Below, in pieces: positions 851-47,187 of a stretch of 64,000 nucleotides of DNA (its first letter is position 1; each line of letters begins with the position of its first letter). The position numbers were made by a program, and so were the translations under genes. The stretch comes from a virus. The notes under the pieces were generated by a model. That model was given only the letters and a program-made list of their open reading frames with translations, did not search any database and had not been told where the DNA came from. The stretch lies in IMG/VR virus record IMGVR_UViG_3300028274_000006, positions 10,773 to 74,772 of that record; one strand, given 5' to 3'.

Positions 851-1771
851 ATGGCATTAACAACCACTGGTACCCTCTCCTCAGTTGTCAAGTCTTACTA
901 TGACCGACGCTTTCTTATGAGAGCCGAAGCAGAGTTTGTCTACAAACAACTTGGACGCATTGGTGTCGTTCCAGCTAACGAAGGTAAAACTGTCGTTTGG
1001 AACCGATATACCAATCCAAGTGCTAAGACTTCAGCACTGACAGAAGGTACAGACCCAACGCCAAGCGGATTGAGCGCATCATTAGTATCCGCAACCATTA
1101 GCCAATACGGCAACTTTGAACAAGTTACCGATATTTTGAGCTTAACTGCAATTGATAATTCAATTTCATCCGCAGTTGAACTCTTGGCTTATGAAGCAGC
1201 CTTGAGCATTGACACTGTCATTCGTGACATTGCCGCCGCAACCACAAGCATTATCTACGCCTCTGGCGTTGCAAATAGAACTTCTATTTCAGCCACAGAC
1301 GTTATGCAAGTTGCAGATGTTCGTAAGACTGTTCGTGAGCTGAAAAGCAACAATGCTAAACCTCAGATGAAGAGCGGCACATTTATGGCCGTCATTCACC
1401 CTGATGTTGAGTATGACTTGCAAGGTGACAGTAACTGGGTAAACGCATCCATCTATACCGAACAGGGTATTGGACAAGTTTACAACGGTGAAGTCGGTAA
1501 ACTATATGGTGTTCGTTTCTTGAACACCACTCAAGCTCCTATCTTAGTGAACTCCGGTTCCTCTGATGGCGTAGAGGTTTATCAATCACTTTTCTTCGGC
1601 GAAGAAGCATTTGGAGTTTCCGAACTTCAAAACCTAACCACTTATGTGGATAGTCCTTCTCCAAGAAGTGCTCTACGAATGTACAGTGACGTTGGTTGGA
1701 AGGCTGGCTTTACCGCCAAAATTCTCAACGACAACTTCATGTATAGTGTTGAGTCTGCTGCTACACAATAA
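851..1771 (+). CDS. Major capsid protein, N4-gp56 family-like
   Basis: EGTDP, QYG, IHPDVEYDL and GEVGKLYGVRF motifs typical of this family; followed by a terminator. Confidence 0.9.
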   Translation: MALTTTGTLSSVVKSYYDRRFLMRAEAEFVYKQLGRIGVVPANEGKTVVWNRYTNPSAKTSALTEGTDPTPSGLSASLVSATISQYGNFEQVTDILSLTAIDNSISSAVELLAYEAALSIDTVIRDIAAATTSIIYASGVANRTSISATDVMQVADVRKTVRELKSNNAKPQMKSGTFMAVIHPDVEYDLQGDSNWVNASIYTEQGIGQVYNGEVGKLYGVRFLNTTQAPILVNSGSSDGVEVYQSLFFGEEAFGVSELQNLTTYVDSPSPRSALRMYSDVGWKAGFTAKILNDNFMYSVESAATQ

Positions 1772-1792: not shown

Positions 1793-1814
1793 AGGCTCCT
1801 TCGGGAGCCTTTTT
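1793..1814 (+). terminator. Rho-independent terminator after the capsid gene
   Basis: aggctcc-TTCG-ggagcct plus T-run, identical at 36079-36100. Confidence 0.9.
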
Positions 1815-1819
1815 GGTTG

Positions 1820-1828
1820 TGCTATAAT
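1820..1828 (+). promoter_or_regulatory. Extended -10 promoter for the GroES/glycosyltransferase operon
   Basis: TGCTATAAT, conserved at 36107-36115. Confidence 0.7.
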
Positions 1829-1849
1829 AATTTTGAAAGGAACAGACAC

Positions 1850-2128
1850 ATGATTATCCCAACAAATGAGAACGTGCTTGTTAAAGGTATTAAGCGTGAG
1901 AAGATTAAAACCGACTCAGGCATTTACCTGTCAGGAGGCACAAGCCAACAGGAGGAATCCTTGAGGTATGGAGAGATATTTCACCCAGGAGCTACCGAGT
2001 ATTCTAAAGGAGATAAGATCTTCTACAGTGCTTATAGTGCTGTATGGGTAAACGATGAAGCTGGTACCGAGTATCAATTACTAAGCCAACTAGATATAAT
2101 GGCAAAAGATGAACCCAAGAAGGCTTGA
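1850..2128 (+). CDS. groES: Co-chaperonin GroES (Cpn10)-like protein
   Basis: P-x3-VLVK...KTDSGIYL mobile loop, G-E-I, KGDKIFY, DIMA pattern; start moved to the RBS-preceded ATG. Confidence 0.8.
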   Translation: MIIPTNENVLVKGIKREKIKTDSGIYLSGGTSQQEESLRYGEIFHPGATEYSKGDKIFYSAYSAVWVNDEAGTEYQLLSQLDIMAKDEPKKA

Positions 2129-2405
2129 AACACTACTGAAGCAAGCTAATCCTCGTTTTAGAGTCAGACAGCGTGGACTCAATCACATTGGAGGGATATT
2201 CTTAGGATCGTCATTCATAGCCACCTTCACAAAGGGACACATCCCACTAAATTCATATAGGTTAGTTTTCAAGAAGAAAGACACTCTAGGAGAGAAGATT
2301 ATCAAACGTGGTCGTGGTGACTTACTACAGATCTTAGTTCGTCGTGGTATTTTGAAGAGGCTAGACTCAATAAGAATTAAATGGGGGATTGATGCCAAAG
2401 ATTAG
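2109..2405 (+). CDS. Basic hypothetical protein
   Basis: Paralog of 36405-36701 sharing TKGHIPLNSYR and IIKRGR. Confidence 0.75.
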   Translation: MNPRRLETLLKQANPRFRVRQRGLNHIGGIFLGSSFIATFTKGHIPLNSYRLVFKKKDTLGEKIIKRGRGDLLQILVRRGILKRLDSIRIKWGIDAKD

Positions 2406-3801
2406 CTGTATTATATCAACCTATAACAGAGCAGATCATTTTTTACCAAAGGCAATAGACTCAGTTTTGTCTCAGACGTTTAAAGACTGGGAATTGGTCA
2501 TTGTAGACGACTCAAGCACCGATGATACCAAAAAAGTAGTAAACTCCTATCAAGACGACCGCATTAGATACCTCAAAACCGGCTCTAATTCTGGTAGTGA
2601 TACCAAGCCTAAGAACTTGGGCACCAAAGAATCCAAAGGTGAATATATTTGCTACTTAGATGACGACGTGCAGTACCGTGAACATGCTTTTGAGATTCTA
2701 GTAGCGGAATTAGATGGAAACAAAGACTTGGACATTGTTTATGGAGATATGTGGATTAAACCTCGTGAAGAGGCTGGGATAGCATTTGACTTTGATGTAC
2801 AGTTTCTCATGCTTAGAAACTACATAGACACTTCAGCGGCCATGATGAGACGTGAGGCTATGTTTGAGATTGGTGGCTGGGATGAGAAGCTACCCAAGTT
2901 TGTAGATTGGAATGTATGGGTGAGGATGGCTAAGGCTGGATTAAAGTTTAAGAGGATTGAGGAGTTTACATTTGATTACTATTTACATGAAGACGCTAAG
3001 TCACAGAAAGTTAAAACAGATATGTATATGCATCCTAAGCTGGGGATGCTGTTTGTACCCACGTTTAGTCCTAGTGGATGTGAAATACGGCTGCCTTATT
3101 TAAGCAACGACGACTCCGTTTTTAAGGTGGCCATATTTACTATTCACTACAACCGATTGGATTACTCTAAGGATACTTATAGGGAGATGATGCTGACAGC
3201 AGGCTATGAGTTTGACTGGTTCTGTAGAGACAATGGAGATGATGGAACACTAGATTGGTTGATTAAAGACACCAACGCAATCATTGACCGCAAGGATGTT
3301 GGGAAGAACTTAGGTATTACCAAGTCCAGCAACAACCTTATAGAGCTTATTAAGGACACTGGAGAGTATGACATTATCATAAAAGTGGATAACGACGTTG
3401 AGTTCCAGACGTATGGATGGTTAAAAGATATTGTGGATATGTGGAAAAGAAACCACATGGCCTATATCTCACCTTATGTTGAAGGACTCTTTCACAACCC
3501 AGGCGGTGCTAGAAGGATAGGGTTTGGAATGATTGGCGATGAGTTTATTGAAGTTACCAACCACATAGGAGGAATCTTTGCCGCTATAGACGCTAAGGCT
3601 TATGACAGCTTTAGATGGGAAGACCAGATGTTACATGGCAATCAGGATGCAGAAGCTAGCATGGCTTTTAGGAAAATGGGATATATGCCCTGCTATTACC
3701 CCAAGCATAGAATCACTCACAGAGACGGCACTGAAGGACAACAACAGAAATACAAGAAATACTTTGAGAGAAGGAAAGAAGAAAAGACCACAAAGGCATG
3801 A
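2392..3801 (+). CDS. GT2 glycosyltransferase, two GT-A domains
   Basis: IISTYNR, VDDSSTD, YLDDD, then a second domain with KVDNDV. Confidence 0.9.
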   Translation: MPKISCIISTYNRADHFLPKAIDSVLSQTFKDWELVIVDDSSTDDTKKVVNSYQDDRIRYLKTGSNSGSDTKPKNLGTKESKGEYICYLDDDVQYREHAFEILVAELDGNKDLDIVYGDMWIKPREEAGIAFDFDVQFLMLRNYIDTSAAMMRREAMFEIGGWDEKLPKFVDWNVWVRMAKAGLKFKRIEEFTFDYYLHEDAKSQKVKTDMYMHPKLGMLFVPTFSPSGCEIRLPYLSNDDSVFKVAIFTIHYNRLDYSKDTYREMMLTAGYEFDWFCRDNGDDGTLDWLIKDTNAIIDRKDVGKNLGITKSSNNLIELIKDTGEYDIIIKVDNDVEFQTYGWLKDIVDMWKRNHMAYISPYVEGLFHNPGGARRIGFGMIGDEFIEVTNHIGGIFAAIDAKAYDSFRWEDQMLHGNQDAEASMAFRKMGYMPCYYPKHRITHRDGTEGQQQKYKKYFERRKEEKTTKA

Positions 3802-4655
3802 AACAATACCCTTATGTTTTTCCCTACTTTGGCTATGATGAGACATCAGCGGGCAATGTATTGATTCATAAGTTTTGTCACTTAATTAACGAGCTTGGTG
3901 GTAAAGCCTACATGGCTACCGACATTACTCATCCAGATCTAAACACTCCTAAAATAAACAACATACAAGGCGTAGACGATAAGTGCATTGTTGTCTCTCC
4001 TGAGAACATCAATCATTTAACCTATGGCGGTGATTACATAGTTAAGTACATCCAGGCTGACTATGAGAAGATTGGTAGGGGCAAAGTTGATTTGGCTGGA
4101 GTAGATGATGTGTGGTGCTTTGCAAAGACATTGTTTCCTAAGCATTGGGGTGGAGAAGTTAAGGTTTGTCATTTTAATACCGTTGATCTTAGTTTGTTTA
4201 ATGAAGACGAGAAGTTTGAGAGAAAGGGCAACATTTGTTACGTCGGTAGAATGGGCGGTAAGGTTGATACATCAATTCTAAAAGACATGAAAGACCTAAC
4301 TGCAATTACCCATGATTTCCCAAAAGACAGAAAAGACCTTATTAAACTCATGCGTAGTAGTGAGTGGTGTTATATATTCTCCAATACTTCAATAGGCAGT
4401 GAAGCCATTATGTGTGGCTGCCCAGTGGTTATGCATGAGAATTTCTCAATGGCTTATGCCTTTGACGAGTATGGTGAAGACGGGAAGTTGTACGGTATGG
4501 CTATAGGTAACTCACTAGAGCAAATGGAGTGGGCTAAGAAAACAGTTAAGAAGTTTCAGGAGAAGGTTTACTGGCATGAAAGCCAAAAGGAGAAAAGAGT
4601 ACTGGCCTTCATGGAAGATACTCAAAAAGGATTACATGAAAAACTACTCGGTTGA
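3798..4655 (+). CDS. Putative GT-B fold glycosyltransferase-like protein
   Basis: YVGR and EAIMCGCPVV GT-B-like C-terminal motif; inside the GT cluster. Confidence 0.55.
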   Translation: MKQYPYVFPYFGYDETSAGNVLIHKFCHLINELGGKAYMATDITHPDLNTPKINNIQGVDDKCIVVSPENINHLTYGGDYIVKYIQADYEKIGRGKVDLAGVDDVWCFAKTLFPKHWGGEVKVCHFNTVDLSLFNEDEKFERKGNICYVGRMGGKVDTSILKDMKDLTAITHDFPKDRKDLIKLMRSSEWCYIFSNTSIGSEAIMCGCPVVMHENFSMAYAFDEYGEDGKLYGMAIGNSLEQMEWAKKTVKKFQEKVYWHESQKEKRVLAFMEDTQKGLHEKLLG

Positions 4656-5334
4656 AGTTCTGGTGATGGCTCACTATGCTCAGAGAAGCGAGAACATGCT
4701 GAAGCTAATTAATGCTTTGAAGAACCAGACTTACAAACACATGTATATCACTGTCTTTGATGATGGAGAGATTGACCTAGATGTAGAAGGTGTGAACTAT
4801 ATTAGAACGACTGACATGTACCACATTACGGCTAGGAACAGCTTGGCTGCCATGAGTGCTGCTGACTATGTTCTTACAATAGACGATGACATGATTCCAG
4901 GTACAAGATATGTAGAGAATCTTATTAAGTATGCTCGGAATCTACCTGGTTCTATCATTGGTGTTGAGGGAGGCAGATTAGTTCCTGGAGACACCCCATA
5001 TACCTCTGGAATGACAGAGAGTACTCATATAATGGTAGAGGTTGATTATCTGATTAGAAGCATGCTACTCCCTCATAAGGTTATTGGGGCTTCTGTAGAT
5101 ATGCACTGCCGCAATAGAGAAAAGATTGGCTCTGAGTTTATAGATGATCTGCTGTTTAGCTTGGCAAACAAATATATGTTGAAGAACACCAACTTTATTG
5201 TTCCAGCAAAGGGCGACTTTGGATATGATAATATATCTGATATGGGGGTGGGTCAATCTAAAAGCTCACAACACTACCTTACTAGAGATATGTTTTGTAA
5301 GTATATAATGGAGGAATATGCAAATATCAGTTAA
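4636..5334 (+). CDS. GT-A fold glycosyltransferase
   Basis: LKNQT, FDDG, ARN and LTIDDD motifs. Confidence 0.75.
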   Translation: MKNYSVEVLVMAHYAQRSENMLKLINALKNQTYKHMYITVFDDGEIDLDVEGVNYIRTTDMYHITARNSLAAMSAADYVLTIDDDMIPGTRYVENLIKYARNLPGSIIGVEGGRLVPGDTPYTSGMTESTHIMVEVDYLIRSMLLPHKVIGASVDMHCRNREKIGSEFIDDLLFSLANKYMLKNTNFIVPAKGDFGYDNISDMGVGQSKSSQHYLTRDMFCKYIMEEYANIS

Positions 5335-5908
5335 TTATGACGACTTCAGTCCATTAAATCACAGGTTTGATATCTTAGATCAAATCAGAGAGAGATACCC
5401 AGACTTCAAAGTTACTATGTTTACCGTTCCTTGGGAGATAAGACTATCTCCGAATACAAAGGGTACTCCTATCACAAATAGCGACTACAAGCCCTGGGTT
5501 CACAGGGTTATGGAGGCAGTAGACAATGGGTGGATGGAGATATCAATTCATGGATTAACACACGCACCTAGAGAGTTTGAAAAACTAACACATACTGAAG
5601 CTAGGAATCGTGTGCTTACAGGACAGAAGATGTTTGCAAATGTAGGTCTTGAGATCAATAATTTGTTTAAAGCACCCCAGTGGCTACTTAACGATGACGC
5701 TAAGAAGGCAATAGAGGACTTAGGATTTAAAGTAATGGAAGACGGTTACTATAACTGGAACTTAAAAGATGAAATGCCTCTTGAGAAGAATCTAATAGCA
5801 CATGGTCATGTTCACGACACAATGGACAATGGTTTAGAAGAATCGTTCTTCAGACTTACTAAGGCTCCTACCGATACAGAGTGGGTGCACTTGAGGGAGA
5901 TGATATGA
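5318..5908 (+). CDS. Polysaccharide deacetylase-like protein (NodB/DUF2334-like)
   Basis: N-terminal DD, HGLTH and FKAPQW motifs. Confidence 0.75.
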   Translation: MQISVNYDDFSPLNHRFDILDQIRERYPDFKVTMFTVPWEIRLSPNTKGTPITNSDYKPWVHRVMEAVDNGWMEISIHGLTHAPREFEKLTHTEARNRVLTGQKMFANVGLEINNLFKAPQWLLNDDAKKAIEDLGFKVMEDGYYNWNLKDEMPLEKNLIAHGHVHDTMDNGLEESFFRLTKAPTDTEWVHLREMI

Positions 5909-6918
5909 AAATCGTGGCTTTCAGTAACGATACCGGCTCCGTACAGTGGAGGCTTAGGGGTCCAGCTAATTACATCAACTCTCTAACCGACCATGAGTTT
6001 GCTGTTGGTAGCCATAAGGACTGGGAAGAGGACACGATGGGTGCTGATGTAGTTGTAGCTGAGATGTGGCGTAATCCAAAAGGGATTGATGTTTGCCATG
6101 AGCAAGGAGCTAAAGTTGTTTACGATGCTGATGACATTATTATTGGCGTTGGTGGTAAAGACCGCAAAACTCTGATGGACTTAGACGAGAAGCAAACCAA
6201 GCAAACTATTGATACTATCGGCAAGTGTGATCTGGTTACAGTTACAACAGAGGTATTAGCAGAACACTATAGACAGTTTAATGACAACGTAATTGTCTTA
6301 CCAAACTACATGGATTATCTGTGGTGGGGAAAGCCCTTAGAGTCTAGGTCTAGAGGATACTTGAGGTTGGGGTGGGCTGGTAGCTTATCTCACCGAGAAG
6401 ACTTAATGATGATTGCTCCAGTGATAGAAAAGATCTGTAAGGACTATGATTTTGTTAAGTTTGTTTATTGTGGTGCAGGAGGCAAGAAGGGAATCTATGG
6501 GGAAGAGATCTTCAACAGCATTCCTTCTAACCAGAGGGAGTATGTTACCGGTGTCCCCTTAGAATACTGGCCAATCAAATCTAAGACACTAGGTTTAGAT
6601 ATAGCTATAGCCCCACTGTTAGATGATGAGTTTAATTCTTGCAAGAGTTCAATTAAATATTATGAGTATGCGGCCAACGGAGTGCCTGGAGTTTACAGCG
6701 ACACCGTTGTATATCACGACGCTATTAAACACGGAGAAACAGGCTATTTAGCAAAGACAAAGGGAGATTGGGAGAAGTACCTAATAGAGCTGATTATGGA
6801 TGAGAAGAAGAGGCAAGAGATAGCAGTTAATGCTTATAAACACGTCTTTGAGAACTATAATTTAGATGACCACTATGAGAAGTGGGTGAAAGCCTATCAA
6901 AAATGTCTGAACCAGTAG
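5905..6918 (+). CDS. GT4 (GT-B) glycosyltransferase
   Basis: VYDADD, GWAGSLSH, DIAIAPL and KYYEYAANGVP motifs. Confidence 0.9.
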   Translation: MKIVAFSNDTGSVQWRLRGPANYINSLTDHEFAVGSHKDWEEDTMGADVVVAEMWRNPKGIDVCHEQGAKVVYDADDIIIGVGGKDRKTLMDLDEKQTKQTIDTIGKCDLVTVTTEVLAEHYRQFNDNVIVLPNYMDYLWWGKPLESRSRGYLRLGWAGSLSHREDLMMIAPVIEKICKDYDFVKFVYCGAGGKKGIYGEEIFNSIPSNQREYVTGVPLEYWPIKSKTLGLDIAIAPLLDDEFNSCKSSIKYYEYAANGVPGVYSDTVVYHDAIKHGETGYLAKTKGDWEKYLIELIMDEKKRQEIAVNAYKHVFENYNLDDHYEKWVKAYQKCLNQ

Positions 6919-7493
6919 CAGTTCCCATAATACCAAGCAATGAACCGGTACCAAAAAGAGTTAGGGTTGATAGCCCATCCTCATCAGTGGTTGAGAGTCA
7001 TAGCCTAGAATCTTATAGCAGTACCTACAATAAGCCCTATCCTATGGACTACTTTGGTTTAAGCGACACAGATGGTTCATCTAGTAATGTTGAATCTATC
7101 ACCAAGCATTTAAGCGAGATGACTGATGGATCTATAGAGATGGTTAAGGGTGTTCTTGATGAAATAGGCAGTAAGTTAAATCTACAAGAAAATGACTCTG
7201 GAATCTTTAAGCTAAACAAGATCCTAGCGTTCTTAGGTATCAAGAGTATTCAAAACAAAGAATCAGAGATGAGTGAACAGGCCCTAAGGGATATCCAAAA
7301 GGATGTTGAGATTGCAAAGGAAGAACTAAGCATCGCTGAGAAAGCCGCCAAGATTGAACTTGAGGCAGAGAAGAGAAAGATCAAAGCAGAAAGCAATAGG
7401 AATGAACAATTAAAGAAACAAATAGCTAAAGGTCAAGACAAATTGAAAAGAATGAGGGCTAAAGTACTTGCAGATATTAAGGGAATAGTATAA
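6903..7493 (+). CDS. Hypothetical coiled-coil protein
   Basis: Distant paralog of 46615-47154. Confidence 0.7.
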   Translation: MSEPVAVPIIPSNEPVPKRVRVDSPSSSVVESHSLESYSSTYNKPYPMDYFGLSDTDGSSSNVESITKHLSEMTDGSIEMVKGVLDEIGSKLNLQENDSGIFKLNKILAFLGIKSIQNKESEMSEQALRDIQKDVEIAKEELSIAEKAAKIELEAEKRKIKAESNRNEQLKKQIAKGQDKLKRMRAKVLADIKGIV

Positions 7494-7526: not shown

Positions 7527-8669
7527 ATGGCATATTCACCAGCTTCCAGCACATTTCCCACAGCTAAAACTACATTCGTTGATCCTACAGCTACAAGTAG
7601 TCAAAATACGTTTGACCACGCAGGACTTGAATCAGCACAGAACGATGGTATTGAAAAACTTGAAACAGCGGTGGGTATTACCGCAAGTGCTGACACAGCA
7701 TCTTTAAACTATAAACTTACCAACGCCTCACAAAGCAATCCAGGACACAAGCATACCGTAGCTGACGGAGCTACCGATGTTACCTCTAGTGCCGCGGAAC
7801 TCAACCAATTAGACGGAGTAACTGTTGGAGGAACTTCAAGCGGAGACATTGTTGATTTAGATACAGCACAAACCCTAGCCACTAAAACCCTAACAAGTCC
7901 TGTATTAAACGGGACTCTTTCTGGTACGGCCTTCTTAGATCAAGATGCAATGGATGATGACAGCGCTATTGCAGTAGCTAGCCAACAATCAATTAAGGCT
8001 TATGTTGACGCCAGTGCTGGTGGATCTACAACTGGTTGGACTTCAGATAGTGATACCTGGGTATATGCTTCGGCACAGACTTTTACAATTGCAGGTAAAG
8101 ACGTAACCACAACTTTTACTAAAGGGACACGGCTCATTTGGACACAAACAACTGTTAAATATGGAGTGGTGGTAGCAAGCTCATTCTCAACTGACACAAC
8201 GGTTACAATAATGACCAACACCGATTACACGATTGCAAATGCTGCTATTACAGTAAATTCATACTCATATCAACAGAATCCACAAGGTTATCCAACTTGG
8301 TTTGATATTGCCGCTCCAACATGGACTGGACTAGACGATGGGGCTGGTGGACAGCCAAGTGTGTCAGTGTGTAGAGGAATGGTTAATGGGAATACTTTTG
8401 ATGCTCATATTCATCTCGCCCCGACTAAAGCTGGCACAAGTAATACTTTCTATCTAGAAACAAGTGATACTGTTTTTCCAGTATGGGTTAATAGGGCTGA
8501 TAGATCTGGTCTGGGCTTTGTTTATTCTCAAACATCTGGAGATAGTAATAATTTAATGACTGCATTTTCAATCGGAACAAAGATATATACCGGATATGCA
8601 ATCCAGTCCAGTATTACTGACAATACAGCATGGACTCATATGACTTATAACTTGAAGTGGGAAATCTAA
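7527..8669 (+). CDS. Tail fibre/spike-like virion protein
   Basis: T/S/A/G-rich with QTLATKTLTSP and [11 protein letters not shown] fibre motifs; N-terminus shared with 47188. Confidence 0.7.
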   Translation: MAYSPASSTFPTAKTTFVDPTATSSQNTFDHAGLESAQNDGIEKLETAVGITASADTASLNYKLTNASQSNPGHKHTVADGATDVTSSAAELNQLDGVTVGGTSSGDIVDLDTAQTLATKTLTSPVLNGTLSGTAFLDQDAMDDDSAIAVASQQSIKAYVDASAGGSTTGWTSDSDTWVYASAQTFTIAGKDVTTTFTKGTRLIWTQTTVKYGVVVASSFSTDTTVTIMTNTDYTIANAAITVNSYSYQQNPQGYPTWFDIAAPTWTGLDDGAGGQPSVSVCRGMVNGNTFDAHIHLAPTKAGTSNTFYLETSDTVFPVWVNRADRSGLGFVYSQTSGDSNNLMTAFSIGTKIYTGYAIQSSITDNTAWTHMTYNLKWEI

Positions 8670-8856: not shown

Positions 8857-9567
8857 ATGACATTAGACGAACTACTAACAGATTTAAATAACAGAATCGG
8901 CTCTACACCAGAGGTGAGTAATGCCAATATGACCACCTGGATTAATGAAGGCTTGAGAGCTTTTTGTAGAGAGCATGACTTTACTTGGTTGGAGAAGAAG
9001 GCGACCGCATCTTCAGTAGCTAGTCAGGCTGAATATGACTTACCAGATGATTATAGGAGAGCTGTTGAATTAAGGGTGGACGGAACAACATCATCACCAA
9101 ATGTTTATTCATGGGTTCCTCACGAGCAGCGTGTCTTATATGACACAAGCCAAAGGATATTCTCAGAGTTTGGGGGGTCTTTTGCACTTAACCCAATTCC
9201 CTCAGCGGTTGGGACAAACAACATTGAGCTTTGGTATCTTCGTAGGCCAACCAATATGACTGTTGGGACACAGAGCCCCTCAGATGCAGCAATAGCATCA
9301 ATGCCAGCAGAATATCACGAGGCTTTAGTTATCTATGCGTTTGCCATCTACAACTCTTATGACGAAGAGCATGATGAGAAGCGTGAATTAATGGGCAATC
9401 CTAGAAATCCCGTACCTGGAACTTATTACTATTATGTAAACTTAGCAATTAAAGATGATACACGCCAAAAAAGAGGTGGAAGACGTAAGTTTATGAGCTT
9501 CCAGGAGTTTGTTGGACACTCACACCCAAACCAAACACCGAGATCTAATACAGTACTAGGAAATTGA
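8857..9567 (+). CDS. Head-tail adaptor protein (podovirus type)
   Basis: WINEG, EYDLPDD and YHEALV pattern; sits before the nozzle gene; paralog of 49182. Confidence 0.65.
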   Translation: MTLDELLTDLNNRIGSTPEVSNANMTTWINEGLRAFCREHDFTWLEKKATASSVASQAEYDLPDDYRRAVELRVDGTTSSPNVYSWVPHEQRVLYDTSQRIFSEFGGSFALNPIPSAVGTNNIELWYLRRPTNMTVGTQSPSDAAIASMPAEYHEALVIYAFAIYNSYDEEHDEKRELMGNPRNPVPGTYYYYVNLAIKDDTRQKRGGRRKFMSFQEFVGHSHPNQTPRSNTVLGN

Positions 9568-16620: not shown

Positions 16621-17637
<1,017 letters not shown>

Positions 17638-17639
17638 AT

Positions 17640-18110
17640 ATGCACATAAAAATTGAACCATCGGGATGTTGTGAACTAAAAGGTTTAGTGCAAATAAGAA
17701 CCTGTTTTTATCTTGAACCAGGTGAAGTTGGATATGATGAGTTTGTTTACCAGTCACCTATTATCCCAGAGGGGGGTTACACTGGTGGGGTTGATGATGC
17801 TGGAAATCCAACTGATATTGAGGATTATAATGAGTGGCTTGCTGGCCTAGATACTGAGCAAAAAGTTAACCCATTTCATAACCACTTTATATATGTTCCA
17901 CACACATCTAGTGATGAGGAGATCTTAGATAAAGCAGAGGCGTTTGCAAGGGAGGCCTATGTTTTACACTCAAACAATCAGTTGATGGACATGAAAAACA
18001 AAGATGTTGTTTTCCCAGATGTAATTGATAAAGAATCTTGTGATGCTAGAGTTGATGAATTAATAGCAACTAACCCCTCAAGAACAAAGGAGACATCATC
18101 ATGGCTTTAA
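17640..18110 (+). CDS. Hypothetical acidic protein
   Basis: ORF tightly coupled within the collagen module. Confidence 0.65.
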   Translation: MHIKIEPSGCCELKGLVQIRTCFYLEPGEVGYDEFVYQSPIIPEGGYTGGVDDAGNPTDIEDYNEWLAGLDTEQKVNPFHNHFIYVPHTSSDEEILDKAEAFAREAYVLHSNNQLMDMKNKDVVFPDVIDKESCDARVDELIATNPSRTKETSSWL

Positions 18111-18595
18111 TTGATGTAGGGCTGGCTGCGATTGATAGAGCTAGTATTTGGCAAAACCCAACCTATACACTAATAAATAAGGATAACTCTGCCGATGGCA
18201 CTGGAACGCTAACCTCTGTTGAAATATGGGCTAATGTAACCACAACTGGGACTGTAGTCGCAACCTTTTTCGGTTCTAGCACAACTTATACTAGTAGGGC
18301 TGGCACAACTATTGGTGCGGTAACTGCTGGGTCAAAACAAACCTTTTCTGGATTGAGCATTCCAGTTGAAACAGGCGACCTAATAGGTATGTATGTAGGG
18401 TCTGCGGGCAAGATGGAGATGGGTACTGCGGGTACAACAGGTATGTATTACAAGTCTGGCAATAATATTACTGAAGCTGAGGTATCTGGCTACACTGACT
18501 ATAGTTATGGTTTCAGTCTCTATGGCACAGGAGCAACTGCCGCAGCCGGTGGTAGAAACCCAGCAACAATATTTGGTAATTATGCAATGGTATAG
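18101..18595 (+). CDS. Thr/Gly-rich beta-structured putative virion protein
   Basis: Composition, AAGGAG RBS and position. Confidence 0.55.
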   Translation: MALIDVGLAAIDRASIWQNPTYTLINKDNSADGTGTLTSVEIWANVTTTGTVVATFFGSSTTYTSRAGTTIGAVTAGSKQTFSGLSIPVETGDLIGMYVGSAGKMEMGTAGTTGMYYKSGNNITEAEVSGYTDYSYGFSLYGTGATAAAGGRNPATIFGNYAMV

Positions 18596-18600
18596 CAATT

Positions 18601-20304
18601 ATGAAAGACATATCGGTAGTTCTTATTGCCAAAAACGAGGAGAAGACTCTCCCCAGACTCCTAGAGTCATTAAAGGGCATTAACGATATTGTCTTAGTAG
18701 ATACTGGATCCACAGACAACACGGTCAAGATTGCTAGAGATGCCGGTTGTAATGTTGAGGAGGTTGGAGACAGATTTAAGATAGGCCCCACTCAAGAACA
18801 AATAGATAGTTGGAAGAAAGACTACGGCATGGAGCCTAGCTTTAAGTTGGGAGAGAAATACTTTCATTATGCCAACGCCAGAAACTATGCGGCCTCATTA
18901 GCTAAGAACGATTGGGTCTTTAGTGCTGATTGTGACGAGGCGATAGATTGGGACTTAGATAAGGTTAGAGAAGCCATCCAAGATGAAGACCATTTAACTT
19001 ACAGGTTTTGCTATACACACAACCCAGATGGGAGTTGTGCCTTAGAGTTTCAGCAGTGCAAGATGTACCGCAAGTCTAAACTTAAATGGACTAAGTGGAT
19101 CCATGAGGTTTTAACTGAAATTGAGCCATGCAAACCTCCTAAGTATTGTGACTTTATTTATCACAACCACTGGCAGAACCCAGAGAGTAAGAGAGGACAC
19201 TACCTACCAGGCTTAGAACTATCCGTGCTAGATCAACCAAATGATGACAGGAATGTTTATTATTTAGGCCGTGAGTATCTATGGAGCAAGAAGTACCAGG
19301 AGGCGATTGTATTCTTAGAGAAGGCTTCTGAGTTATCACAATGGATGCCAGAGAAAAGCCAAGCTCATGTTTTTATGGGAGAGGCTTATGAACACCTGGG
19401 AGATATCAATAAAGCTATAGATTGTTATTTAAAGGCCATATCTGTTTACGGGCTAAGACGAGAGCCGTACTGGAGCTTAGGACAAGCCTATGAAAAGCTA
19501 AAGAGGCCAAGCGAAGCTAAGGTATGGTATCAGGCGGCTTTAGGTGTTGAATATAATCCACAAGGCTATTTAACTGAAATGACATATTATGAGTGGAGAA
19601 TACCAGATCAACTAGCCACTCTTTCAAGCGATAAAGAAGAATGCAAGAAGTGGTGGGTAGAATCGTTAAAACACAATCCAGACAAAAGAATTCTAAACAA
19701 CGTTAAGTATTTCTATGACACACCACTAATCTCAATCATTGTACCGGTGGTGCGTAAAGAAGGATTTAAGAGACTGACTGAATCAATCAAAGAGAACACC
19801 GTCTATCCTAACTATGAGATTATTTGCAGAGATGAGGATGGCACAGCCATCAAGAAGTTCAACGATGGTGTTAGGGAGTCTAAGGGCGAGTTTATTGTTT
19901 TCTTAGCAGATGACACTGAGGTAATGTTGGGGTGGCTAACTCAAGCATTTGTACACTTTAAAGAGAATCTTCATGGTAAGGGGATAGTCGTATTAAACGA
20001 TGAGGGATGGAAGGAAAGCATTGCCCATCACTTTCTAATTTCTAGAAACTGTTTAGACGATCTTGAGAACAACGAGATATTTTACAGAGGATACAACCAC
20101 TGTGGCGTTGATGTAGAACTAGCAGCTCAAATGAAGAAGCGGGGTCTCTATACTTACTGCAAGGATGCCGGGCTGAAGCACTATCACTATTGTCTATCTA
20201 CTAGGGGAGTTGAACCCAACAAAAGAGATGGGTGGTATAAAAAGGTAGACGCCTGGAGAGAAGACGATAAGAAGCTTCTAGATGAAAGACTGGAAAAGAT
20301 ATGA
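18601..20304 (+). CDS. GT2-TPR-GT2 glycosyltransferase
   Basis: IAKNEE, VDTGSTD, ARN, DCDE, IHE, then TPR repeats, then ISIIVP...FLADD. Confidence 0.9.
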   Translation: MKDISVVLIAKNEEKTLPRLLESLKGINDIVLVDTGSTDNTVKIARDAGCNVEEVGDRFKIGPTQEQIDSWKKDYGMEPSFKLGEKYFHYANARNYAASLAKNDWVFSADCDEAIDWDLDKVREAIQDEDHLTYRFCYTHNPDGSCALEFQQCKMYRKSKLKWTKWIHEVLTEIEPCKPPKYCDFIYHNHWQNPESKRGHYLPGLELSVLDQPNDDRNVYYLGREYLWSKKYQEAIVFLEKASELSQWMPEKSQAHVFMGEAYEHLGDINKAIDCYLKAISVYGLRREPYWSLGQAYEKLKRPSEAKVWYQAALGVEYNPQGYLTEMTYYEWRIPDQLATLSSDKEECKKWWVESLKHNPDKRILNNVKYFYDTPLISIIVPVVRKEGFKRLTESIKENTVYPNYEIICRDEDGTAIKKFNDGVRESKGEFIVFLADDTEVMLGWLTQAFVHFKENLHGKGIVVLNDEGWKESIAHHFLISRNCLDDLENNEIFYRGYNHCGVDVELAAQMKKRGLYTYCKDAGLKHYHYCLSTRGVEPNKRDGWYKKVDAWREDDKKLLDERLEKI

Positions 20305-26561: not shown

Positions 26562-26695
26562 TGTCTATATCAAGATGCCAATATTGTGACACAACTTACG
26601 ATCAAGATTTTAACGCAGAGCATGAGGAAGAGTGCGAGATGGAAACTCAGGAAGAACACGAAGAAGTTTGTGAAGGATGGTTATTAGATAAATAG
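26561..26695 (+). CDS. Small acidic C2HC-type protein (44 aa)
   Basis: MSISRCQYC...HEEEC, homologous to 63735. Confidence 0.75.
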   Translation: MSISRCQYCDTTYDQDFNAEHEEECEMETQEEHEEVCEGWLLDK

Positions 26696-26700
26696 GAGAA

Positions 26701-35138: not shown

Positions 35139-36059
35139 ATGGCATTAACAACCAGTGGTACACTCTCCAGTGTGGTGGCTGCTTATTACGACAAACGCTT
35201 CCTCATGCGAGCTGAAGCCGAATTCGTATTTAAGCAACTAGGTAGGATCGGTGTCGTTCCTGCAAACGAAGGTAAAACTGTCGTTTGGAATAGATACACG
35301 AACCCTAGTGCAAAAACCGCACTGACAGAAGGTACTGACCCAACCCCTAGCGGACTATCCGCTACTTTAGTAAGTGCTACCGTTTCCCAATACGGAAACT
35401 TTGAGCAAATCACTGACTATTTGAGCTTAACCTCAATAGACAACAGTGTAGCCTCAGCAGTTGATTTATTGGCTTACGAAGCCGCACTCTCCATTGACTC
35501 TGCTATTTTGGCAGTAGTTGATGGTGGAACCAGCATCATTTATGCGTCAGGTGTTGCTAATAGAACCTCTATTAGTGCAACTGATATCATGCAAGTTGCT
35601 GATGTTCGTAAAACTGTGCGTGAGCTAAAGAGCAATAACGCTAAACCCCAGAAGAAATCTGGAACCTTTATGGCTGTAATCCACCCCGATGTGGAATATG
35701 ACCTACAAGGTGACAGCAACTGGACAAATGCTCATCTTTATACCGATTCCGGTCTTAAAGGTGGTATTTATAATGGCGAGGTCGGTAAACTTTACGGTGT
35801 TCGTTTCTTAACGACCACTCAAGCTCCAATTCTGATTAACTCAGGTTCTTCAGACGGAGTTGAAGTCTATCAATCTATGTTCTTCGGTGAAGAAGCATTT
35901 GGAGTTTCCGAACTTCAAAGCCTGACCACTTATGTGGACAGCCCTTCACCCCGAAGCGCATTACGCTTATACAGTGATGTCGGCTGGAAAGCTGGCTTCT
36001 GTGCAAAGATTCTCAATGAGAATTTCATGTACACTGTAGAATCCGCAGCAACTCAATAA
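35139..36059 (+). CDS. Major capsid protein, N4-gp56 family-like (copy B)
   Basis: Close paralog of 851-1771. Confidence 0.9.
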   Translation: MALTTSGTLSSVVAAYYDKRFLMRAEAEFVFKQLGRIGVVPANEGKTVVWNRYTNPSAKTALTEGTDPTPSGLSATLVSATVSQYGNFEQITDYLSLTSIDNSVASAVDLLAYEAALSIDSAILAVVDGGTSIIYASGVANRTSISATDIMQVADVRKTVRELKSNNAKPQKKSGTFMAVIHPDVEYDLQGDSNWTNAHLYTDSGLKGGIYNGEVGKLYGVRFLTTTQAPILINSGSSDGVEVYQSMFFGEEAFGVSELQSLTTYVDSPSPRSALRLYSDVGWKAGFCAKILNENFMYTVESAATQ

Positions 36060-36078: not shown

Positions 36079-36100
36079 AGGCTCCTTCGGGAGCCTTTTT
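36079..36100 (+). terminator. Rho-independent terminator
   Basis: UUCG hairpin plus T-run. Confidence 0.9.
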
Positions 36101-36418: not shown

Positions 36419-36701
36419 GTTGGAACGCCTGCTAAAACAAACAAACCCTCGTTATAGAATTAGACAGCGTGGGTTTAATCATGTCGCTGGAATCTTCCTT
36501 GGAAATGAGTTTATGCTCACTGTCACTAAGGGACACATCCCCCTCAATTCATATAGAATGGTAGCTCAAACAAATGACAGGCTTAAAGAGAGAATCATTA
36601 AGCGTGGTCGTGCTGATGCTTTAAGAATCCTCAATCGTCGTCGTAAGTTAGGAAGAAAAGAGTCTATAAAGATTAAATGGGGGAAGAATGCCAAAGATTA
36701 G
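36405..36701 (+). CDS. Basic hypothetical protein
   Basis: Paralog of 2109-2405. Confidence 0.75.
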   Translation: MNLNKLERLLKQTNPRYRIRQRGFNHVAGIFLGNEFMLTVTKGHIPLNSYRMVAQTNDRLKERIIKRGRADALRILNRRRKLGRKESIKIKWGKNAKD

Positions 36702-38094
36702 CTGTATTATATCAACCTATAACAGAGCAGATCATTTTTTGCCAAAGGCAATAGACTCAGTTTTGTCTCAGACGTTTAGCGACTGGGAATTGGTCATTGT
36801 AGACGACTCAAGCACAGACAATACCAAAAAAGTAGTAAACTCCTATCAAGACGACCGCATTAAATACCTCAAAACCGGCTCCAATTCTGGAAGTGATACT
36901 AAGCCTAAGAACATTGGTACTATAAAATCAACTGGGGAGTATATTTGCTACTTAGATGACGATGTGCAGTACCGACCCAACCACTTTGAGCTATTAAGTA
37001 AAGAGTTGGACAAAGGCGAGGTAGATATTGTGTATGGTGATATGTGGATTAAACCCAAAGAAGAACCAGGAATTGCTAGGGACTTTGATGCACAGTTCCT
37101 TATGCTTAGAAACTTCATAGACACTTCAGCAGCGATGATGAAACGTGAGTGTATGTTTGAGATTGGCGGTTGGGATGAGACTCTGCCAAAGTTTGTTGAT
37201 TGGAATGTTTGGGTGAGAATGCTTAAAGCAGGATTTAAGTTTAAGAGAATTCACGAGTTTACCTTTGACTACTATATTCACGAAGATACCAAATCTCAGA
37301 GGGTTAGGACTGAGATGTACCTACATCCAAAGCTAGGGATGTTGTTTGTTCCCACTTTTAGTCCAAGTGGATGCTATATACGGCTGCCCTATTTGAACAA
37401 AGACGACTCCGTTATTAGGGTAGCCATATTTACCATTCACTACAACAGATTGGATTACTCTAAGCAGTCTTACTTTGAGATGGAGGAAACAGCGGGGTAT
37501 AAGTTTGATTGGTTTTGTAGAGACAACGGAGATGATGGAACTATTAAATGGTTAAAAAATGAGACTAACGCTATCTTAGATGCTAAGAAGCCGACTAAGA
37601 ATCTAGGAATCACTAAATCCAGCAATAAGCTAATAGATCTCATACAAGCTACCGATGATTATGACATTATTATAAAAGTGGATAACGACGTTGAGTTCCA
37701 GACTTACGGATGGTTGAAGGATATTGTGGATATGTGGAAAAGAAACCACATGATCTATATTTCCCCCTACGTTGAGGGATTAAAAGATAACCCAGGTGGA
37801 GCTAGAAGAATAGGATTTGGGATGGTCGGAGATGAATACATAGAAGTAACCAATCACATCGGTGGTATCTTTGCTGCCATTGATGCTAGAGCTTACAACG
37901 AGTTCAGGTGGTCAGATGAAATGTTACATGGGAATCAAGACGCAGAGGCAAGTATGGCTTTTAGGAAATTAAACTATATGCCCTGCTACTACCCAAAACA
38001 CAGGATAACTCACCGAGACGGAACTGAGGGTCAGCACAAGAAGTACAAAGAATACTTTGAAAAGAGGAAAGATGAAAAGACAACAAAAGCTTGA
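36688..38094 (+). CDS. GT2 glycosyltransferase, two domains (copy B)
   Basis: Paralog of 2392-3801. Confidence 0.9.
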   Translation: MPKISCIISTYNRADHFLPKAIDSVLSQTFSDWELVIVDDSSTDNTKKVVNSYQDDRIKYLKTGSNSGSDTKPKNIGTIKSTGEYICYLDDDVQYRPNHFELLSKELDKGEVDIVYGDMWIKPKEEPGIARDFDAQFLMLRNFIDTSAAMMKRECMFEIGGWDETLPKFVDWNVWVRMLKAGFKFKRIHEFTFDYYIHEDTKSQRVRTEMYLHPKLGMLFVPTFSPSGCYIRLPYLNKDDSVIRVAIFTIHYNRLDYSKQSYFEMEETAGYKFDWFCRDNGDDGTIKWLKNETNAILDAKKPTKNLGITKSSNKLIDLIQATDDYDIIIKVDNDVEFQTYGWLKDIVDMWKRNHMIYISPYVEGLKDNPGGARRIGFGMVGDEYIEVTNHIGGIFAAIDARAYNEFRWSDEMLHGNQDAEASMAFRKLNYMPCYYPKHRITHRDGTEGQHKKYKEYFEKRKDEKTTKA

Positions 38095-38284
38095 TTACCT
38101 CAAAGGTTTTCACCCAGATGGAGAATTGGTTAAAGAAAAGTTTGACGATGGAAAAGAATATTTTAGATATAAAGCAGAAAAACTAAAGAAATGGGATCCC
38201 ATAGGAGCAGACGAAGATTGTTGTCTGGATGATGCGGTTCTATTTACTAAAACGTTCTTAAATGAAAAAACACAAAGAGGATAA
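38072..38284 (+). CDS. Hypothetical protein
   Basis: Fills the gap in the operon and overlaps both neighbours. Confidence 0.45.
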   Translation: MKRQQKLDYLKGFHPDGELVKEKFDDGKEYFRYKAEKLKKWDPIGADEDCCLDDAVLFTKTFLNEKTQRG

Positions 38285-38780
38285 ATATCAATCTAGATAT
38301 TTAGCTCACCAGCTAAAAAAGAAGGAAGTTCTTAAGAGGATTATAGAGGAGCGTCACTCCACCAGAGAGTTCTCAGGGGAAGAGATAGATATTGAAACCA
38401 TTGAGTCTATCTTAAATAGTATTGAACATTGCCCTTCTAGTTGTGATAGACAGGCTATTAGCATCACCTTAATAGAAGATAGAGACTATAAAGACTTATT
38501 AGGAGGACTATTAGTTGGTGGAACAGGATGGATACACAGAGCAGATAAGATTCTTTTAATATTTGCCAATGCCGATGCTTACAAAGAGAAGTTGGTATTT
38601 ATGCCCTTCTTAGATGCTGGGGTGGTTATCTATCACCTCTACTTAATGGCTGAATACTTTGACCTCAAGGCTTGCTACGTTAATCCGAATATAAGAATCC
38701 ACAACCTCGCTGAGTTTCAGATAATGTTCGGTGATGGGATCTTTTGTGGAGCTATGGCGTTAGGATATGAAAAGAAATAA
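38262..38780 (+). CDS. Nitroreductase-family flavoprotein
   Basis: RHSTREF, PSSCDRQ, DAG...LYLMA...L.AC and ALGY motifs. Confidence 0.85.
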   Translation: MKKHKEDKYQSRYLAHQLKKKEVLKRIIEERHSTREFSGEEIDIETIESILNSIEHCPSSCDRQAISITLIEDRDYKDLLGGLLVGGTGWIHRADKILLIFANADAYKEKLVFMPFLDAGVVIYHLYLMAEYFDLKACYVNPNIRIHNLAEFQIMFGDGIFCGAMALGYEKK

Positions 38781-39453
38781 ATTAGTAGCAATCATGGGAT
38801 GGCGTTATGAGCCTGAGTGGATGGTTCGGGAAATGCACCACAACTTACTTCCCTGGGTTGATGACTTTGCAGTCTTAGACGATAGGGGCAGGAAAGACCT
38901 ATGGAGACATGAGGGTGAATACCGAAGAAAGCTGAGATCAAAGGCTAGAAAGATGAAGGCAGATTGGGTTCTGGTCACCTCACCAGACGAGAGATGGGAG
39001 AAGAACGCAGGAGAGGTCATTAGACCCCTAATAGATGACAACAAAAGGAAAGTAATATATCAGTTTAATCTCAAGGAAATGTGGGATCCGTACCATTACC
39101 GAGTAGATGGTATCTGGGGTAGGAAAGTACGCAGAAGGCTTTATCCTCTACTACCTAATCAGAAGATGGCTTATCAATCTATCCAATGCCCCAGTTTCCC
39201 ACAGAACGAGGACTATAAAGTAGAGCACGTTGATGTTAATATCTATCATCTCAAGATGATGTCTAGAGAGAATAGGAGAATGAGGGCTAAAGTATTTAAG
39301 AAGCTAGATGAGGATAATAAGTTTCAAGGGATAGGATATGACTATTTAGCAGACGAGAGAGGGGTAGAGCTAGAAGCAGTCCTAAAAGACAGAGAGTTCT
39401 TTCCCAAGGTAACACAAGAATATAAGTTTGAAGTACCAGAGCATTTATTATGA
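38767..39453 (+). CDS. GT-A-like glycosyltransferase (atypical DxD)
   Basis: VLDD, ADWVLVTSPDERW and IYHL motifs. Confidence 0.6.
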   Translation: MKRNKLVAIMGWRYEPEWMVREMHHNLLPWVDDFAVLDDRGRKDLWRHEGEYRRKLRSKARKMKADWVLVTSPDERWEKNAGEVIRPLIDDNKRKVIYQFNLKEMWDPYHYRVDGIWGRKVRRRLYPLLPNQKMAYQSIQCPSFPQNEDYKVEHVDVNIYHLKMMSRENRRMRAKVFKKLDEDNKFQGIGYDYLADERGVELEAVLKDREFFPKVTQEYKFEVPEHLL

Positions 39454-40274
39454 CATTCTTACTAACAGCTCACTTTGCTGACTTGTTCAGGGGAACGGAG
39501 AGGTTTAACTATATCTTAGCTAAGTACCTTAGCAATGAGGGTCACGACGTTTATTTCTTCAGTCACAAGCATGGGGGGTTCTCTAAGTCTATAGCGGAGT
39601 ACGCTACTATCTTGGAAGAGCCTGGAATAATGGAGTTTGACCAAATTATATCTTCTCACAATGTCTGCTATAAAGATGTGATGCACTTGAGCAAGAATAG
39701 GTTGTTTATTTGTCACGGCATACTTAGCAACTTAGATGTTCCACCTGGAGATTGCCCTTCAGTAGCCGTATCGGAAGAGGCGATGATTGAGTACGGATGT
39801 GATGGGGTGATGAAGAACCCTGTGGACATGGACTTCTTTTACCCCGAGGAGAAGAGGGGGGACACCATCGTTTACCTAGACTCCAACCCCACAGAGATAA
39901 TGCTTAAAATCCTAGAAAAGAATAATGAGAATTATGAGGTTGTTGGTGCGGGAGGTAAAGATGAGGATATATCTAAGAAGGTTAGAAGTGCCCGCATGGT
40001 AATAGCAGGAGCAAGAGGAGCATTGGAGGCTATGGCTTGTAAGGTTCCAGTGTTGGTTTATAAGAGCACAGGCTTTGATGGATATTGTGGAGAGTATTGG
40101 GAGCTACAGAAAAACAACTTCTCTGGTAGACGCTACTCCAAAGACCTAACATTAGACACCTTTAGATATGAGATGGCTAAGATCAACGATGAGGACACAG
40201 AGGATTGTTATGAGTATGTTAAAGATCAGCACGACATTAAGAGTATTATGTACAGACTGAGGCAATATTTATGA
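39450..40274 (+). CDS. GT-B (GT4-like) glycosyltransferase
   Basis: GTE, GHDV, NPVD and RGALEAMACKVPV motifs. Confidence 0.75.
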   Translation: MTFLLTAHFADLFRGTERFNYILAKYLSNEGHDVYFFSHKHGGFSKSIAEYATILEEPGIMEFDQIISSHNVCYKDVMHLSKNRLFICHGILSNLDVPPGDCPSVAVSEEAMIEYGCDGVMKNPVDMDFFYPEEKRGDTIVYLDSNPTEIMLKILEKNNENYEVVGAGGKDEDISKKVRSARMVIAGARGALEAMACKVPVLVYKSTGFDGYCGEYWELQKNNFSGRRYSKDLTLDTFRYEMAKINDEDTEDCYEYVKDQHDIKSIMYRLRQYL

Positions 40275-45049: not shown

Positions 45050-45081
45050 AAATAATAGCTTTCAGTAATGATATGTGTTAA
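45046..45081 (+). pseudogene. Orphaned original 5' end of the GT4 gene (MKIIAFSNDMC*)
   Basis: Matches the start of 5905 (MKIVAFSND). Confidence 0.7.
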
Positions 45082-47154: not shown

Positions 47155-47187
47155 TATTATTCTGACGGAGCGGTCTCAGGACTGCTT

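Follow-up and report, generated by a model that had tools for sequence, protein, structure and literature searches.

Mycobacteriophages glycosylate capsid and tail-tube subunits with glycosyltransferases (GTs) of their own (Freeman 2023, cited in PMC12363180, PMC11256854 and PMC12619734), and this is the closest proven system to the locus discussed here. We have analyzed a window of 64,000 nucleotides (bases 10773-74772 of the 74,772-bp IMG/VR record IMGVR_UViG_3300028274_000006; all coordinates are window positions), in which a cassette of carbohydrate-active enzymes lies behind the gene for the major capsid protein (MCP). Its frame is made up of a two-domain GT2 (GT2x2) on the left, and a CE4-type polysaccharide deacetylase and a GT4 on the right, with a variable core between them. 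From the gene content we surmise that the cassette brings about a late-expressed, fully cytoplasmic glycosylation of a capsid-module protein, a reading to which we assign a probability of about 0.55. To our knowledge, virion glycosylation by phage enzymes has been shown experimentally in only a few mycobacteriophages, and no description of a GT2x2-CE4-GT4 cassette was found in the literature searched.

Self-comparison reveals that the window is composed of two colinear units, approximately 77% identical in DNA. Comparison of the junction sites (window 26650-26950 and 63870-64000, and the record start) showed that the record ends in ~127 bases found identically at window ~26700-26826, and begins with bases that match exactly the sequence located 75 nt beyond this site. 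The record thus traces a figure eight through two sibling genomes (~37.5 and ~37.2 kb), both circularly permuted, which were joined by assembly, since the end and the start of the record lie 75 nt apart in a shared near-identical segment. The two copies of the original prediction are therefore no duplication within one genome but two sibling phages, referred to below as A (cassette 2389-6918) and B (cassette 36688-46630). A genuine 75-kb "double genome" was considered and rejected on account of this path and of the size of the relatives in IMG/VR, which measure 30-41 kb; all contigs with members of the GT2x2 family are at most 45 kb in length, with the exception of the 75-kb record itself. The joined 74.8-kb record carries a completeness rating of 100%.

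In both phages the left part has the same order, that is MCP, terminator hairpin, GroES-like gene, p98 and GT2x2, and the genes of the cassette lie on one strand with overlapping starts and stops. Pfam detects a GT2 only in the first ~190 residues of GT2x2 (1-187), and the C-terminal half has no sequence match in the PDB. An AlphaFold2 (AF2) model constructed from 38 homologs (pLDDT 93) contains two GT-A domains, and the motifs DDD (91-93) and DND (334-336) are invariant in these homologs. At the right end, the deacetylase of A scores 44.5 bits with DUF2334 and 26.0 bits with Polysacc_deac_1 (cut-offs 26 and 23.1); the motifs YDDF, HGLTH and HGHVHD, read by eye, are conserved in A and B, and the enzyme is found in every cassette that bears GT2x2. 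The GT4 of A matches the Pfam families Glyco_trans_1_4 and Glycos_transf_1 as well as phrog_7162 (4e-43). The anchors of A and B are 83-85% identical and the MCPs 87% identical in amino acid sequence. With synonymous sites near saturation, dN/dS between A and B is 0.09 for GT2x2, 0.04 for GT4 and 0.04 for the MCP; the enzyme triad is under purifying selection as strong as that on the MCP.

A and B cease to be homologous at the nucleotide level with the GT2x2 stop codon, and homology is regained at the deacetylase start. The first gene of core A specifies a compact protein of GT-B fold, the structural neighbors of which in the ESM Atlas are GT4/GT1 clusters (TM-score 0.73-0.80) and which has a single homolog among the cores, in relative L006; the second is a GT2 forming a singleton cluster. 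Core B (38057-44481) is composed of eight genes of at least 170 codons and a 75-aa ORF, including two epimerase/dehydratases of the short-chain dehydrogenase/reductase (SDR) type. The DegT/DnrJ/EryC1-fold enzyme has His at the position of the Lys that binds pyridoxal phosphate (SFYPAHH, 173-179), as in sugar 3-dehydratases, and together with the two SDRs and the nitroreductase-like gene it may constitute a deoxy-sugar pathway. Homologs of this enzyme, 74-76% identical, are located directly after GT2x2 in L036 and L038. None of the core B proteins is related to core A by BLAST, and the two cores share no family. In total there are five GT domains in A and at least six in B, and the cassette occupies 4-9 kb, or ~12-25% of a 37-kb genome. 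The layout put forward in the original prediction is thus upheld: a double GT2 at the left of both copies (Pfam, AF2 model, invariant DXD motifs), deacetylase plus GT4 at the right (Pfam, PHROG), two GT-like genes in core A (one by Pfam GT2, the other by GT-B structural neighbors) and about nine unrelated genes in core B. An HNH endonuclease ORF between deacetylase and GT4 in B was absent from that account.

A search with the MCP resulted in 29 viral loci, and a GT2x2 profile search in 28 viral loci and three contigs of metagenome-assembled genomes (MAGs); relatives are designated by locus numbers (L). All loci with an MCP of at least 57% identity and enough downstream sequence show the order MCP-(GroES-like)-(p98)-GT2x2-[core]-deacetylase-GT4, and in every one GT2x2 is found within ~1 kb of the MCP stop. 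The 15 distinct related phages with complete cassettes possess 13 different cores, the proteins of which fall into 30 clusters, 21 of them singletons. Core size ranges from zero in L070, L074 and L091, where the cassette is reduced to GT2x2-deacetylase-GT4, to nine genes at most among the loci from the GT4 search. The triad is vertically inherited: for pairs of loci, the identities of GT2x2, of the deacetylase and of GT4 go along with that of the MCP (Spearman 0.77-0.83; the p-values of these correlations are inflated because the pairs are not independent), whereas core family content tracks neither MCP nor GT2x2 identity (rho 0.14 and -0.01). Hypervariability between fixed flanks, suspected from A and B, is therefore a property of the relatives as well.

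Pfam typing of the relatives' cores identified an FdtA-like isomerase, a UDP-galactopyranose mutase, an RGP/UDP-arabinopyranose-mutase-like protein (1e-39), a sulfotransferase, a hexapeptide acetyltransferase, many S-adenosylmethionine-dependent methyltransferases and an extra GT1/GT4. HNH endonucleases, present in L005, L006 and L013, and one TnpB (OrfB_IS605) are also found within relatives' cassettes (Table 1), and these may drive core replacement. GT2x2 has more than 600 homologs in viral contigs. At 50% identity there are ~25-30 full-length clusters of the family, some of them fused to a methyltransferase. A search of 185,579 species genomes returned only three matches, all on phage-like MAG contigs, and no full-length GT2x2 was found in cultured phages; the protein is practically phage-only. 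The lineage inhabits seawater, an anaerobic digester and, in the case of a distant relative with the same right-hand frame, a freshwater spring. Cassette A occurs nearly verbatim in at least 20 seawater metagenome runs, possibly from one campaign, and a megablast search of the window against 50,697 phage records gave no match.

The cassette is tied to the MCP rather than to the rest of the head module. L010, L016 and L058 have a portal of just 19-22% identity, and L013 and L014 have no portal match at all, yet the MCP-cassette unit is kept; it is likewise intact in several other relatives with a large terminase subunit (TerL) of 23-33% identity, and where scaffold or tail modules have been exchanged. 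Of all parts of the cassette, GT4 has the widest distribution, with 297 relatives in viral contigs. Among the 68 GT4 loci with at least 4 kb of upstream sequence, 52 have an MCP-profile match 0-13 ORFs upstream of GT4 (median 3.4 kb); in 25 of these the full triad of GT2x2, deacetylase and GT4 is present, and the other 27 possess GT4, singly or in duplicate, in the absence of both GT2x2 and a deacetylase. Among the 16 loci lacking an MCP match, several show the order TerL, portal, scaffold, ~300-aa protein, small protein and GT4. In the spring podovirus MW202801 (GenBank; 40,140 bp, MCP 29% identical) the same place is occupied by MCP-hyp-FeS oxidoreductase-GT-PhyH-methyltransferase-NodB-like-GT. 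The head module as such is a mosaic, in which TerL, portal and scaffold are exchanged independently (L005, L006, L010, L011, L013, L014, L016 and L058).

A terminator after the MCP gene is a usual device for combining high MCP expression with low expression of the genes downstream. In A and B identical hairpins followed by a T-run are located at this site, which fits the low-level read-through expected for enzymes. Unrelated strong hairpins with T-runs were found at the post-MCP site in 14 of ~22 relatives; the exact sequence of A and B is absent from the relatives, and only the hairpin-plus-T-run feature is common. No enrichment of promoter-like sites was observed in the cassette.

A GtrABC module consists of GtrA with four transmembrane (TM) segments, GtrB with C-terminal TM helices and GtrC, and belongs to temperate phages. 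Throughout the 74.8-kb record, no ORF on the coding strand has four or more predicted TM (hydrophobic) segments; therefore flippase, polymerase and GtrABC are missing, as the original prediction held. Neither the membrane set of O-antigen and capsule loci (initiating phosphoglycosyltransferase, flippase or ABC transporter, polymerase or ligase) nor GtrA, GtrC, a GtrB with C-terminal TM helices or signs of a temperate phage were found in the record. The proteins of the cassette contain no TM helices, except that the nitroreductase-like protein has a single hydrophobic segment, which is borderline.

These searches bear on the possibility that the enzymes remodel the host envelope, with soluble GTs acting, on the inner side of the membrane, on undecaprenyl-linked or teichoic-acid-type intermediates of the host and host transporters exporting the altered polymer. 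The cell surface would then be changed late in infection, for instance blocking the adsorption of progeny or competitors to infected cells and debris. The N-terminal domain of GT2x2 resembles wall-polymer GT2s of the TarP, TarS, RmlT and SpsA type and is labeled "GtrB-like O-antigen conversion" by PHROG (a match confined to the generic GT2 core, residues 2-120); the layout with a variable core is that of surface-polysaccharide loci, the GTs of which are TM-less too in the case of the bacterial O-antigen. We nevertheless consider this explanation unlikely. GtrA, GtrC, Wzx, Wzy and an initiating transferase are all missing, there are no integrase or lysogeny genes, while seroconversion is a trait of lysogens, and genes located behind the MCP terminator in a late operon would have little time for surface turnover. 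In addition, GT2x2 is absent from cellular genomes, and the fact that the cassette follows the MCP through module swaps would be left unexplained.

In structure, each of the domains of GT2x2 can be aligned with the two-domain synthases PmHS2 and K4CP (Foldseek E 1e-20 to 1e-23). The alignments with 8vh7, 8viw and 2z86 extend over the whole length (392-403 residues, Z 22-25). Together with the invariance of both DXD motifs, this would suit a polymer made by GT2x2 that is not on the virion; a related proposal is that a non-structural phage protein or a host protein, such as one sensed by defense, is glycosylated. A free or otherwise targeted glycan of this kind appears distinctly unlikely to us, because the orientation of the GT2x2 domains differs from that in the synthases (TM-score 0.39-0.47), no export machinery is present, 27 related loci carry only GT4 next to the MCP, and the tight co-inheritance with the MCP would again have no explanation.

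Certain phages are known to possess GTs that attach diverse glycans to 5-hydroxymethyl-pyrimidines (bioRxiv 10.1101/2023.12.21.572611), and the homologs of GT4 in phapecoctaviruses lie in the replication module. Hypermodification of the phage DNA against restriction was considered as well. In searches with working controls, neither PF00303 (ThyA-like, the hydroxymethylase family) nor PF00145 (C5 methyltransferase) was found; PF12851 (Tet_JBP) also gave no match, but this profile matched no control genome either and is uninformative. Neither phage carries replication or nucleotide-metabolism genes, the cassette is located in the head module, and a deacetylase and nucleoside diphosphate (NDP)-sugar pathways for deoxy or furanose sugars are not known parts of DNA-modification systems. 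A role in DNA glycosylation is thus very improbable.

Certain observations weigh against glycosylation of the virion. In L072 (IMGVR_UViG_3300005326_000287) the GT2x2...deacetylase-GT4 cassette is located upstream of the portal gene and not after the MCP, and the nearest homologs of GT4 in cultured phages (~28% identity; ESCO13 gp230-233, Table 1) adjoin primase/helicase and DNA polymerase genes, not head genes. Morons too sit after terminators in late operons, and gene position alone is consequently weak evidence for a role in the virion. In the pathways for O-antigen and teichoic acid, too, soluble GT2 and GT4 enzymes do without TM helices, and because of this the missing TM proteins leave room for action on host lipid-linked intermediates. 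Finally, the MCP ends in E-[ST]-[AG]-A-[ST]-x in all cassette-bearing members of the clade and differently in relatives devoid of the cassette, a pattern which comes from a single clade and is confounded with phylogeny. No tag is shared by the other virion proteins, and the MCP of MW202801 ends differently; the motif was rejected as an acceptor tag, and no acceptor motif is established.

The virion glycan-type locus of the original prediction stands as far as the fixed flanks with exchangeable core, the soluble enzymes, the linkage to the MCP and the absence of the prerequisites for DNA modification and seroconversion are concerned, while modification of the virion itself is what we infer from them. 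Its description as a locus organized like that for an O-antigen is apt for the conserved anchors, variable middle and mobile endonucleases, but not for the mechanism, there being no initiating phosphoglycosyltransferase, Wzx, Wzy or ligase.

If the virion is indeed glycosylated, GT4 or GT2x2 would put the first sugar on a capsid-module protein. For this protein-directed (priming) step GT4 appears, judging from gene distribution, at least as good as GT2x2, and we regard it as the best candidate because it is present alone in the simplest loci. The acceptor might be the MCP itself, or else the neighboring Ser/Thr-rich p203 or the fiber proteins (p380/p592); L050 and L052 are devoid of p203 and fiber-like proteins, which favors the MCP or a small post-MCP protein. 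GT2x2 would contribute another two sugars or a disaccharide in repeats, an amine on a hexosamine would be exposed by the deacetylase, and the genes in the slot would supply and decorate strain-specific sugars. The outcome would be a virion glycan type that differs between otherwise near-identical phages, as would be expected if diversity were selected for by a glycan-recognizing agent (host surface or defense, lectins, grazers or enzymes, for instance). The conserved anchors would be the sites of the recombination that exchanges the cores, and the endonucleases residing in the cassettes would assist in it. Over 230 nt at the 5′-end of GT2x2 (2367-2616 vs 36666-36915) the siblings are 93-97% identical against a background of ~75%, which suggests recent gene conversion between them at the left anchor; A and B would therefore meet in the same cells.

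A bolder version of this proposal, which we hold to be unlikely, is that these are "serotyped" phages. Here the MCP-linked GT4 would prime, GT2x2 would build a capsule-like coat of repeating disaccharides on the capsid, the deacetylase would trim it and the swappable slot would alter the chemistry of the coat (deoxy, amino, furanose, methyl, sulfate). Were this true, siblings that infect the same cells would differ mainly in the particle glycan, under diversifying selection comparable to that on bacterial O-antigens.

Both phages are podophage-like, with an SU10-type portal and adaptor, a T4-type large terminase and an M23 peptidase. No integrase or DNA polymerase gene was found; the early region of the record is without an ORF of more than 200 aa, and there is thus no ORF the size of an integrase or polymerase. 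On this basis both ~37-kb phages are probably lytic. The nearest MCPs from cultured phages, those of Bacillus phages Page and Pascal, are only 31-33% identical. In three relatives (L011:6848-7402, L014:5972-6529 and L042:7821-8363) the MCP gene is interrupted by ORFs for LAGLIDADG endonucleases, which may be introns or free-standing homing elements.

The GroES-like gene directly after the MCP is kept in most relatives, and its product is probably a phage co-chaperonin for capsid folding. In the 19 homologs of p98 an RGR motif is invariant, and translation of the protein is coupled to that of GT2x2. The AF2 model of p98 (pLDDT 91) displays a confident alpha/beta fold, for which the ESM Atlas offered no lead, Foldseek against the PDB gave E values of 0.34 or higher, a VIA-wide structure search gave a best Z of 5.5, which is within noise, and BFVD contained one uncharacterized phage protein only. 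Downstream of GT4, homologs of p203 occur at the same position in L004, L005, L006 and L033, and the A and B versions are 37% identical. The fiber-like protein p380 has no match in Pfam, PHROG or PDB, and p592 no sequence match in the PDB.

A second glycosylation-type module is present in phage A only, in the tail region, and is absent between the same flanks in B. It pairs a collagen-repeat protein (Pfam Collagen 4e-16) with a protein of GT2 plus TPR domains, a combination that suits protein glycosylation. Phage A therefore has a short cassette plus this 3.7-kb module and phage B a long cassette without it, in genomes of 37.5 and 37.2 kb; the near-equal sizes may reflect a packaging limit.

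Table 1. Location of the features discussed, in window positions unless a relative or an accession is named
Feature	Source	Position	Strand	Remarks
Major capsid protein, HK97-type	A	851..1771	+	Pfam Phage_capsid_4/3
Major capsid protein	B	35139..36059	+	
Terminator-like hairpin with T-run	A	1793..1810	+	AGGCTCC-TTCG-GGAGCCT; directly after MCP stop
Terminator-like hairpin with T-run	B	36079..36096	+	Identical to A; after MCP
GroES-like co-chaperonin	A	1817..2128	+	Pfam Cpn10 6.6e-10, above cut-off; PHROG co-chaperonin GroES
GroES/Cpn10 homolog	B	36146-36418		
p98	A	2109..2405	+	Conserved basic 98-aa protein; overlaps GT2x2 start
p98	B	36405-36701		
GT2x2 (left anchor)	A	2389..3801	+	470 aa; two GT-A domains in one protein
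GT2x2 (left anchor)	B	36688..38094	+	468 aa; 83% aa identity to A
Compact GT-B-fold GT (core)	A	3798..4655	+	285 aa; no Pfam match
Single-domain GT2 (core)	A	4576..5334	+	252 aa; Pfam Glycos_transf_2 35 bits; true start maybe internal ATG
CE4-type polysaccharide deacetylase (right anchor)	A	5318..5908	+	
GT4, GT-B (right anchor)	A	5881..6918	+	Probable start ATG 5905
p203	A	6882..7493	+	Ser-rich N-terminus, coiled-coil C-terminus; coupled to GT4
p380, fiber-like	A	7527..8669	+	Ser/Thr-rich (27%); conserved N-terminus, variable C-terminus
Head-tail adaptor	A	8857..9567	+	End of head module; Pfam SU10_adaptor 7.5e-24
Second glycosylation-type module	A	16630..20304	+	Collagen-repeat protein 16630-17637; GT2-TPR protein 18601-20304
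Nitroreductase-family protein (core)	B	38262..38780	+	Pfam Nitroreductase 45 bits, N-terminal part only
228-aa protein (core)	B	38767..39453	+	No Pfam match
Weak GT-B-like protein (core)	B	39450..40274	+	274 aa; Pfam Glycos_transf_1 and Glyco_transf_4, both below cut-off
SDR NDP-sugar epimerase/dehydratase (core)	B	40271-41122	+	Pfam Epimerase 2e-39
SDR NDP-sugar epimerase/dehydratase (core)	B	41097-41981	+	Pfam Epimerase 3e-38
GT2 (core)	B	41971..42669	+	232 aa
DegT/DnrJ/EryC1-fold enzyme (core)	B	42653..43780	+	Pfam 2e-86
GT2 (core)	B	43777..44481	+	234 aa
CE4-type deacetylase (right anchor)	B	44354..45049	+	Probable start 44456
HNH endonuclease ORF	B	45085..45621	+	Pfam HNH, weak; splits deacetylase from GT4
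GT4 (right anchor)	B	45611..46630	+	
p186 and p592	B	46594..48966	+	p186, p203 homolog; p592, fiber-like, 26% Ser+Thr
HNH/TnpB ORFs in cassettes	L005	14295-14786; 17476-17871		
HNH/TnpB ORF in cassette	L006	14724-15191		
HNH/TnpB ORF in cassette	L013	14127-14564		
HNH/TnpB ORF in cassette	L048	8736-10028		
Four adjacent GTs, gp230-233	L138 = NC_047770.1 (Escherichia phage ESCO13, phapecoctavirus)	100079-112825		Two related to GT4

An abundant, uncultured lineage of ~37-kb aquatic podophages thus spends ~12-25% of its genome on enzymes of this type, and within structural modules that are otherwise conserved, the genes for the glycan type vary most. Provided that the particles are glycosylated, a hidden strain-specific layer could influence how they adsorb, stick to marine particles and mucus, decay, are grazed and are recognized by host defenses or, in the case of therapeutic phages, by antibodies. 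The fixed anchors would then be a ready means of finding and typing such loci in viromes, and the compact cassettes a supply of soluble enzymes with which to make rare sugars (3,6-dideoxy, furanose, methylated or sulfated).

Among known systems, O-antigen and capsule loci and GtrABC modules have in common with the cassette the conserved anchors around a variable set of NDP-sugar and GT genes; they differ in possessing an initiating phosphoglycosyltransferase, flippase, polymerase and ligase, or GtrA, GtrC and lysogeny genes, all of which the cassette lacks. K4CP (2z86/2z87) and PmHS2 (8vh7/8vh8/8viw) are, like GT2x2, soluble polypeptides with two GT-A domains each bearing a DXD motif. GT2x2 is only 14-19% identical to them, with a different arrangement of the domains, and the alternating polymerase activity that marks the synthases is hypothetical for GT2x2.

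In logic, the closest counterparts are the flagellin glycosylation islands of bacteria (PMC7874193) and the glycosylation clusters of the Megavirinae (PMC10117803). In the former, as described for Aeromonas (PMC7874193; PMC3958885), soluble GTs and sugar genes also lie among the genes of a self-assembling surface protein, conserved flanks enclose a highly polymorphic middle, and one common GT marks the complex-glycan type. These islands are bacterial and have anchors of the pse/Maf type, whereas the cassette contains no Maf or nonulosonic-acid genes, and the resemblance is one of function and not of homology. The Megavirinae clusters and the capsid glycosylation of chloroviruses (PMC10117803; PMC9614988) are likewise virus-encoded, host-independent machineries that place rare bacterial-type sugars on the virion, with a gene content that differs between clades. 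They belong to giant viruses of eukaryotes with 1-Mb genomes; here 4-9 kb suffice, and gene content is different even in siblings whose MCPs are 87% identical.

The mycobacteriophage system, as outlined for Che8 gp110, Corndog gp38 and Myrna in the reports that cite it, shares with our proposal the phage-encoded, soluble GTs that work in the cytoplasm on self-assembling virion proteins. According to the same reports it belongs to siphophages and myophages of actinobacteria, in contrast to the uncultured marine podophages described here. It also differs, as far as it is portrayed there, from the triad of two-domain GT2, CE4 enzyme and GT4, with its whole NDP-sugar tailoring pathways that are hypervariable between near-identical phages. 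What is particular to the present locus is the conserved GT2x2-CE4-GT4 frame around a hypervariable NDP-sugar slot, documented across its relatives.

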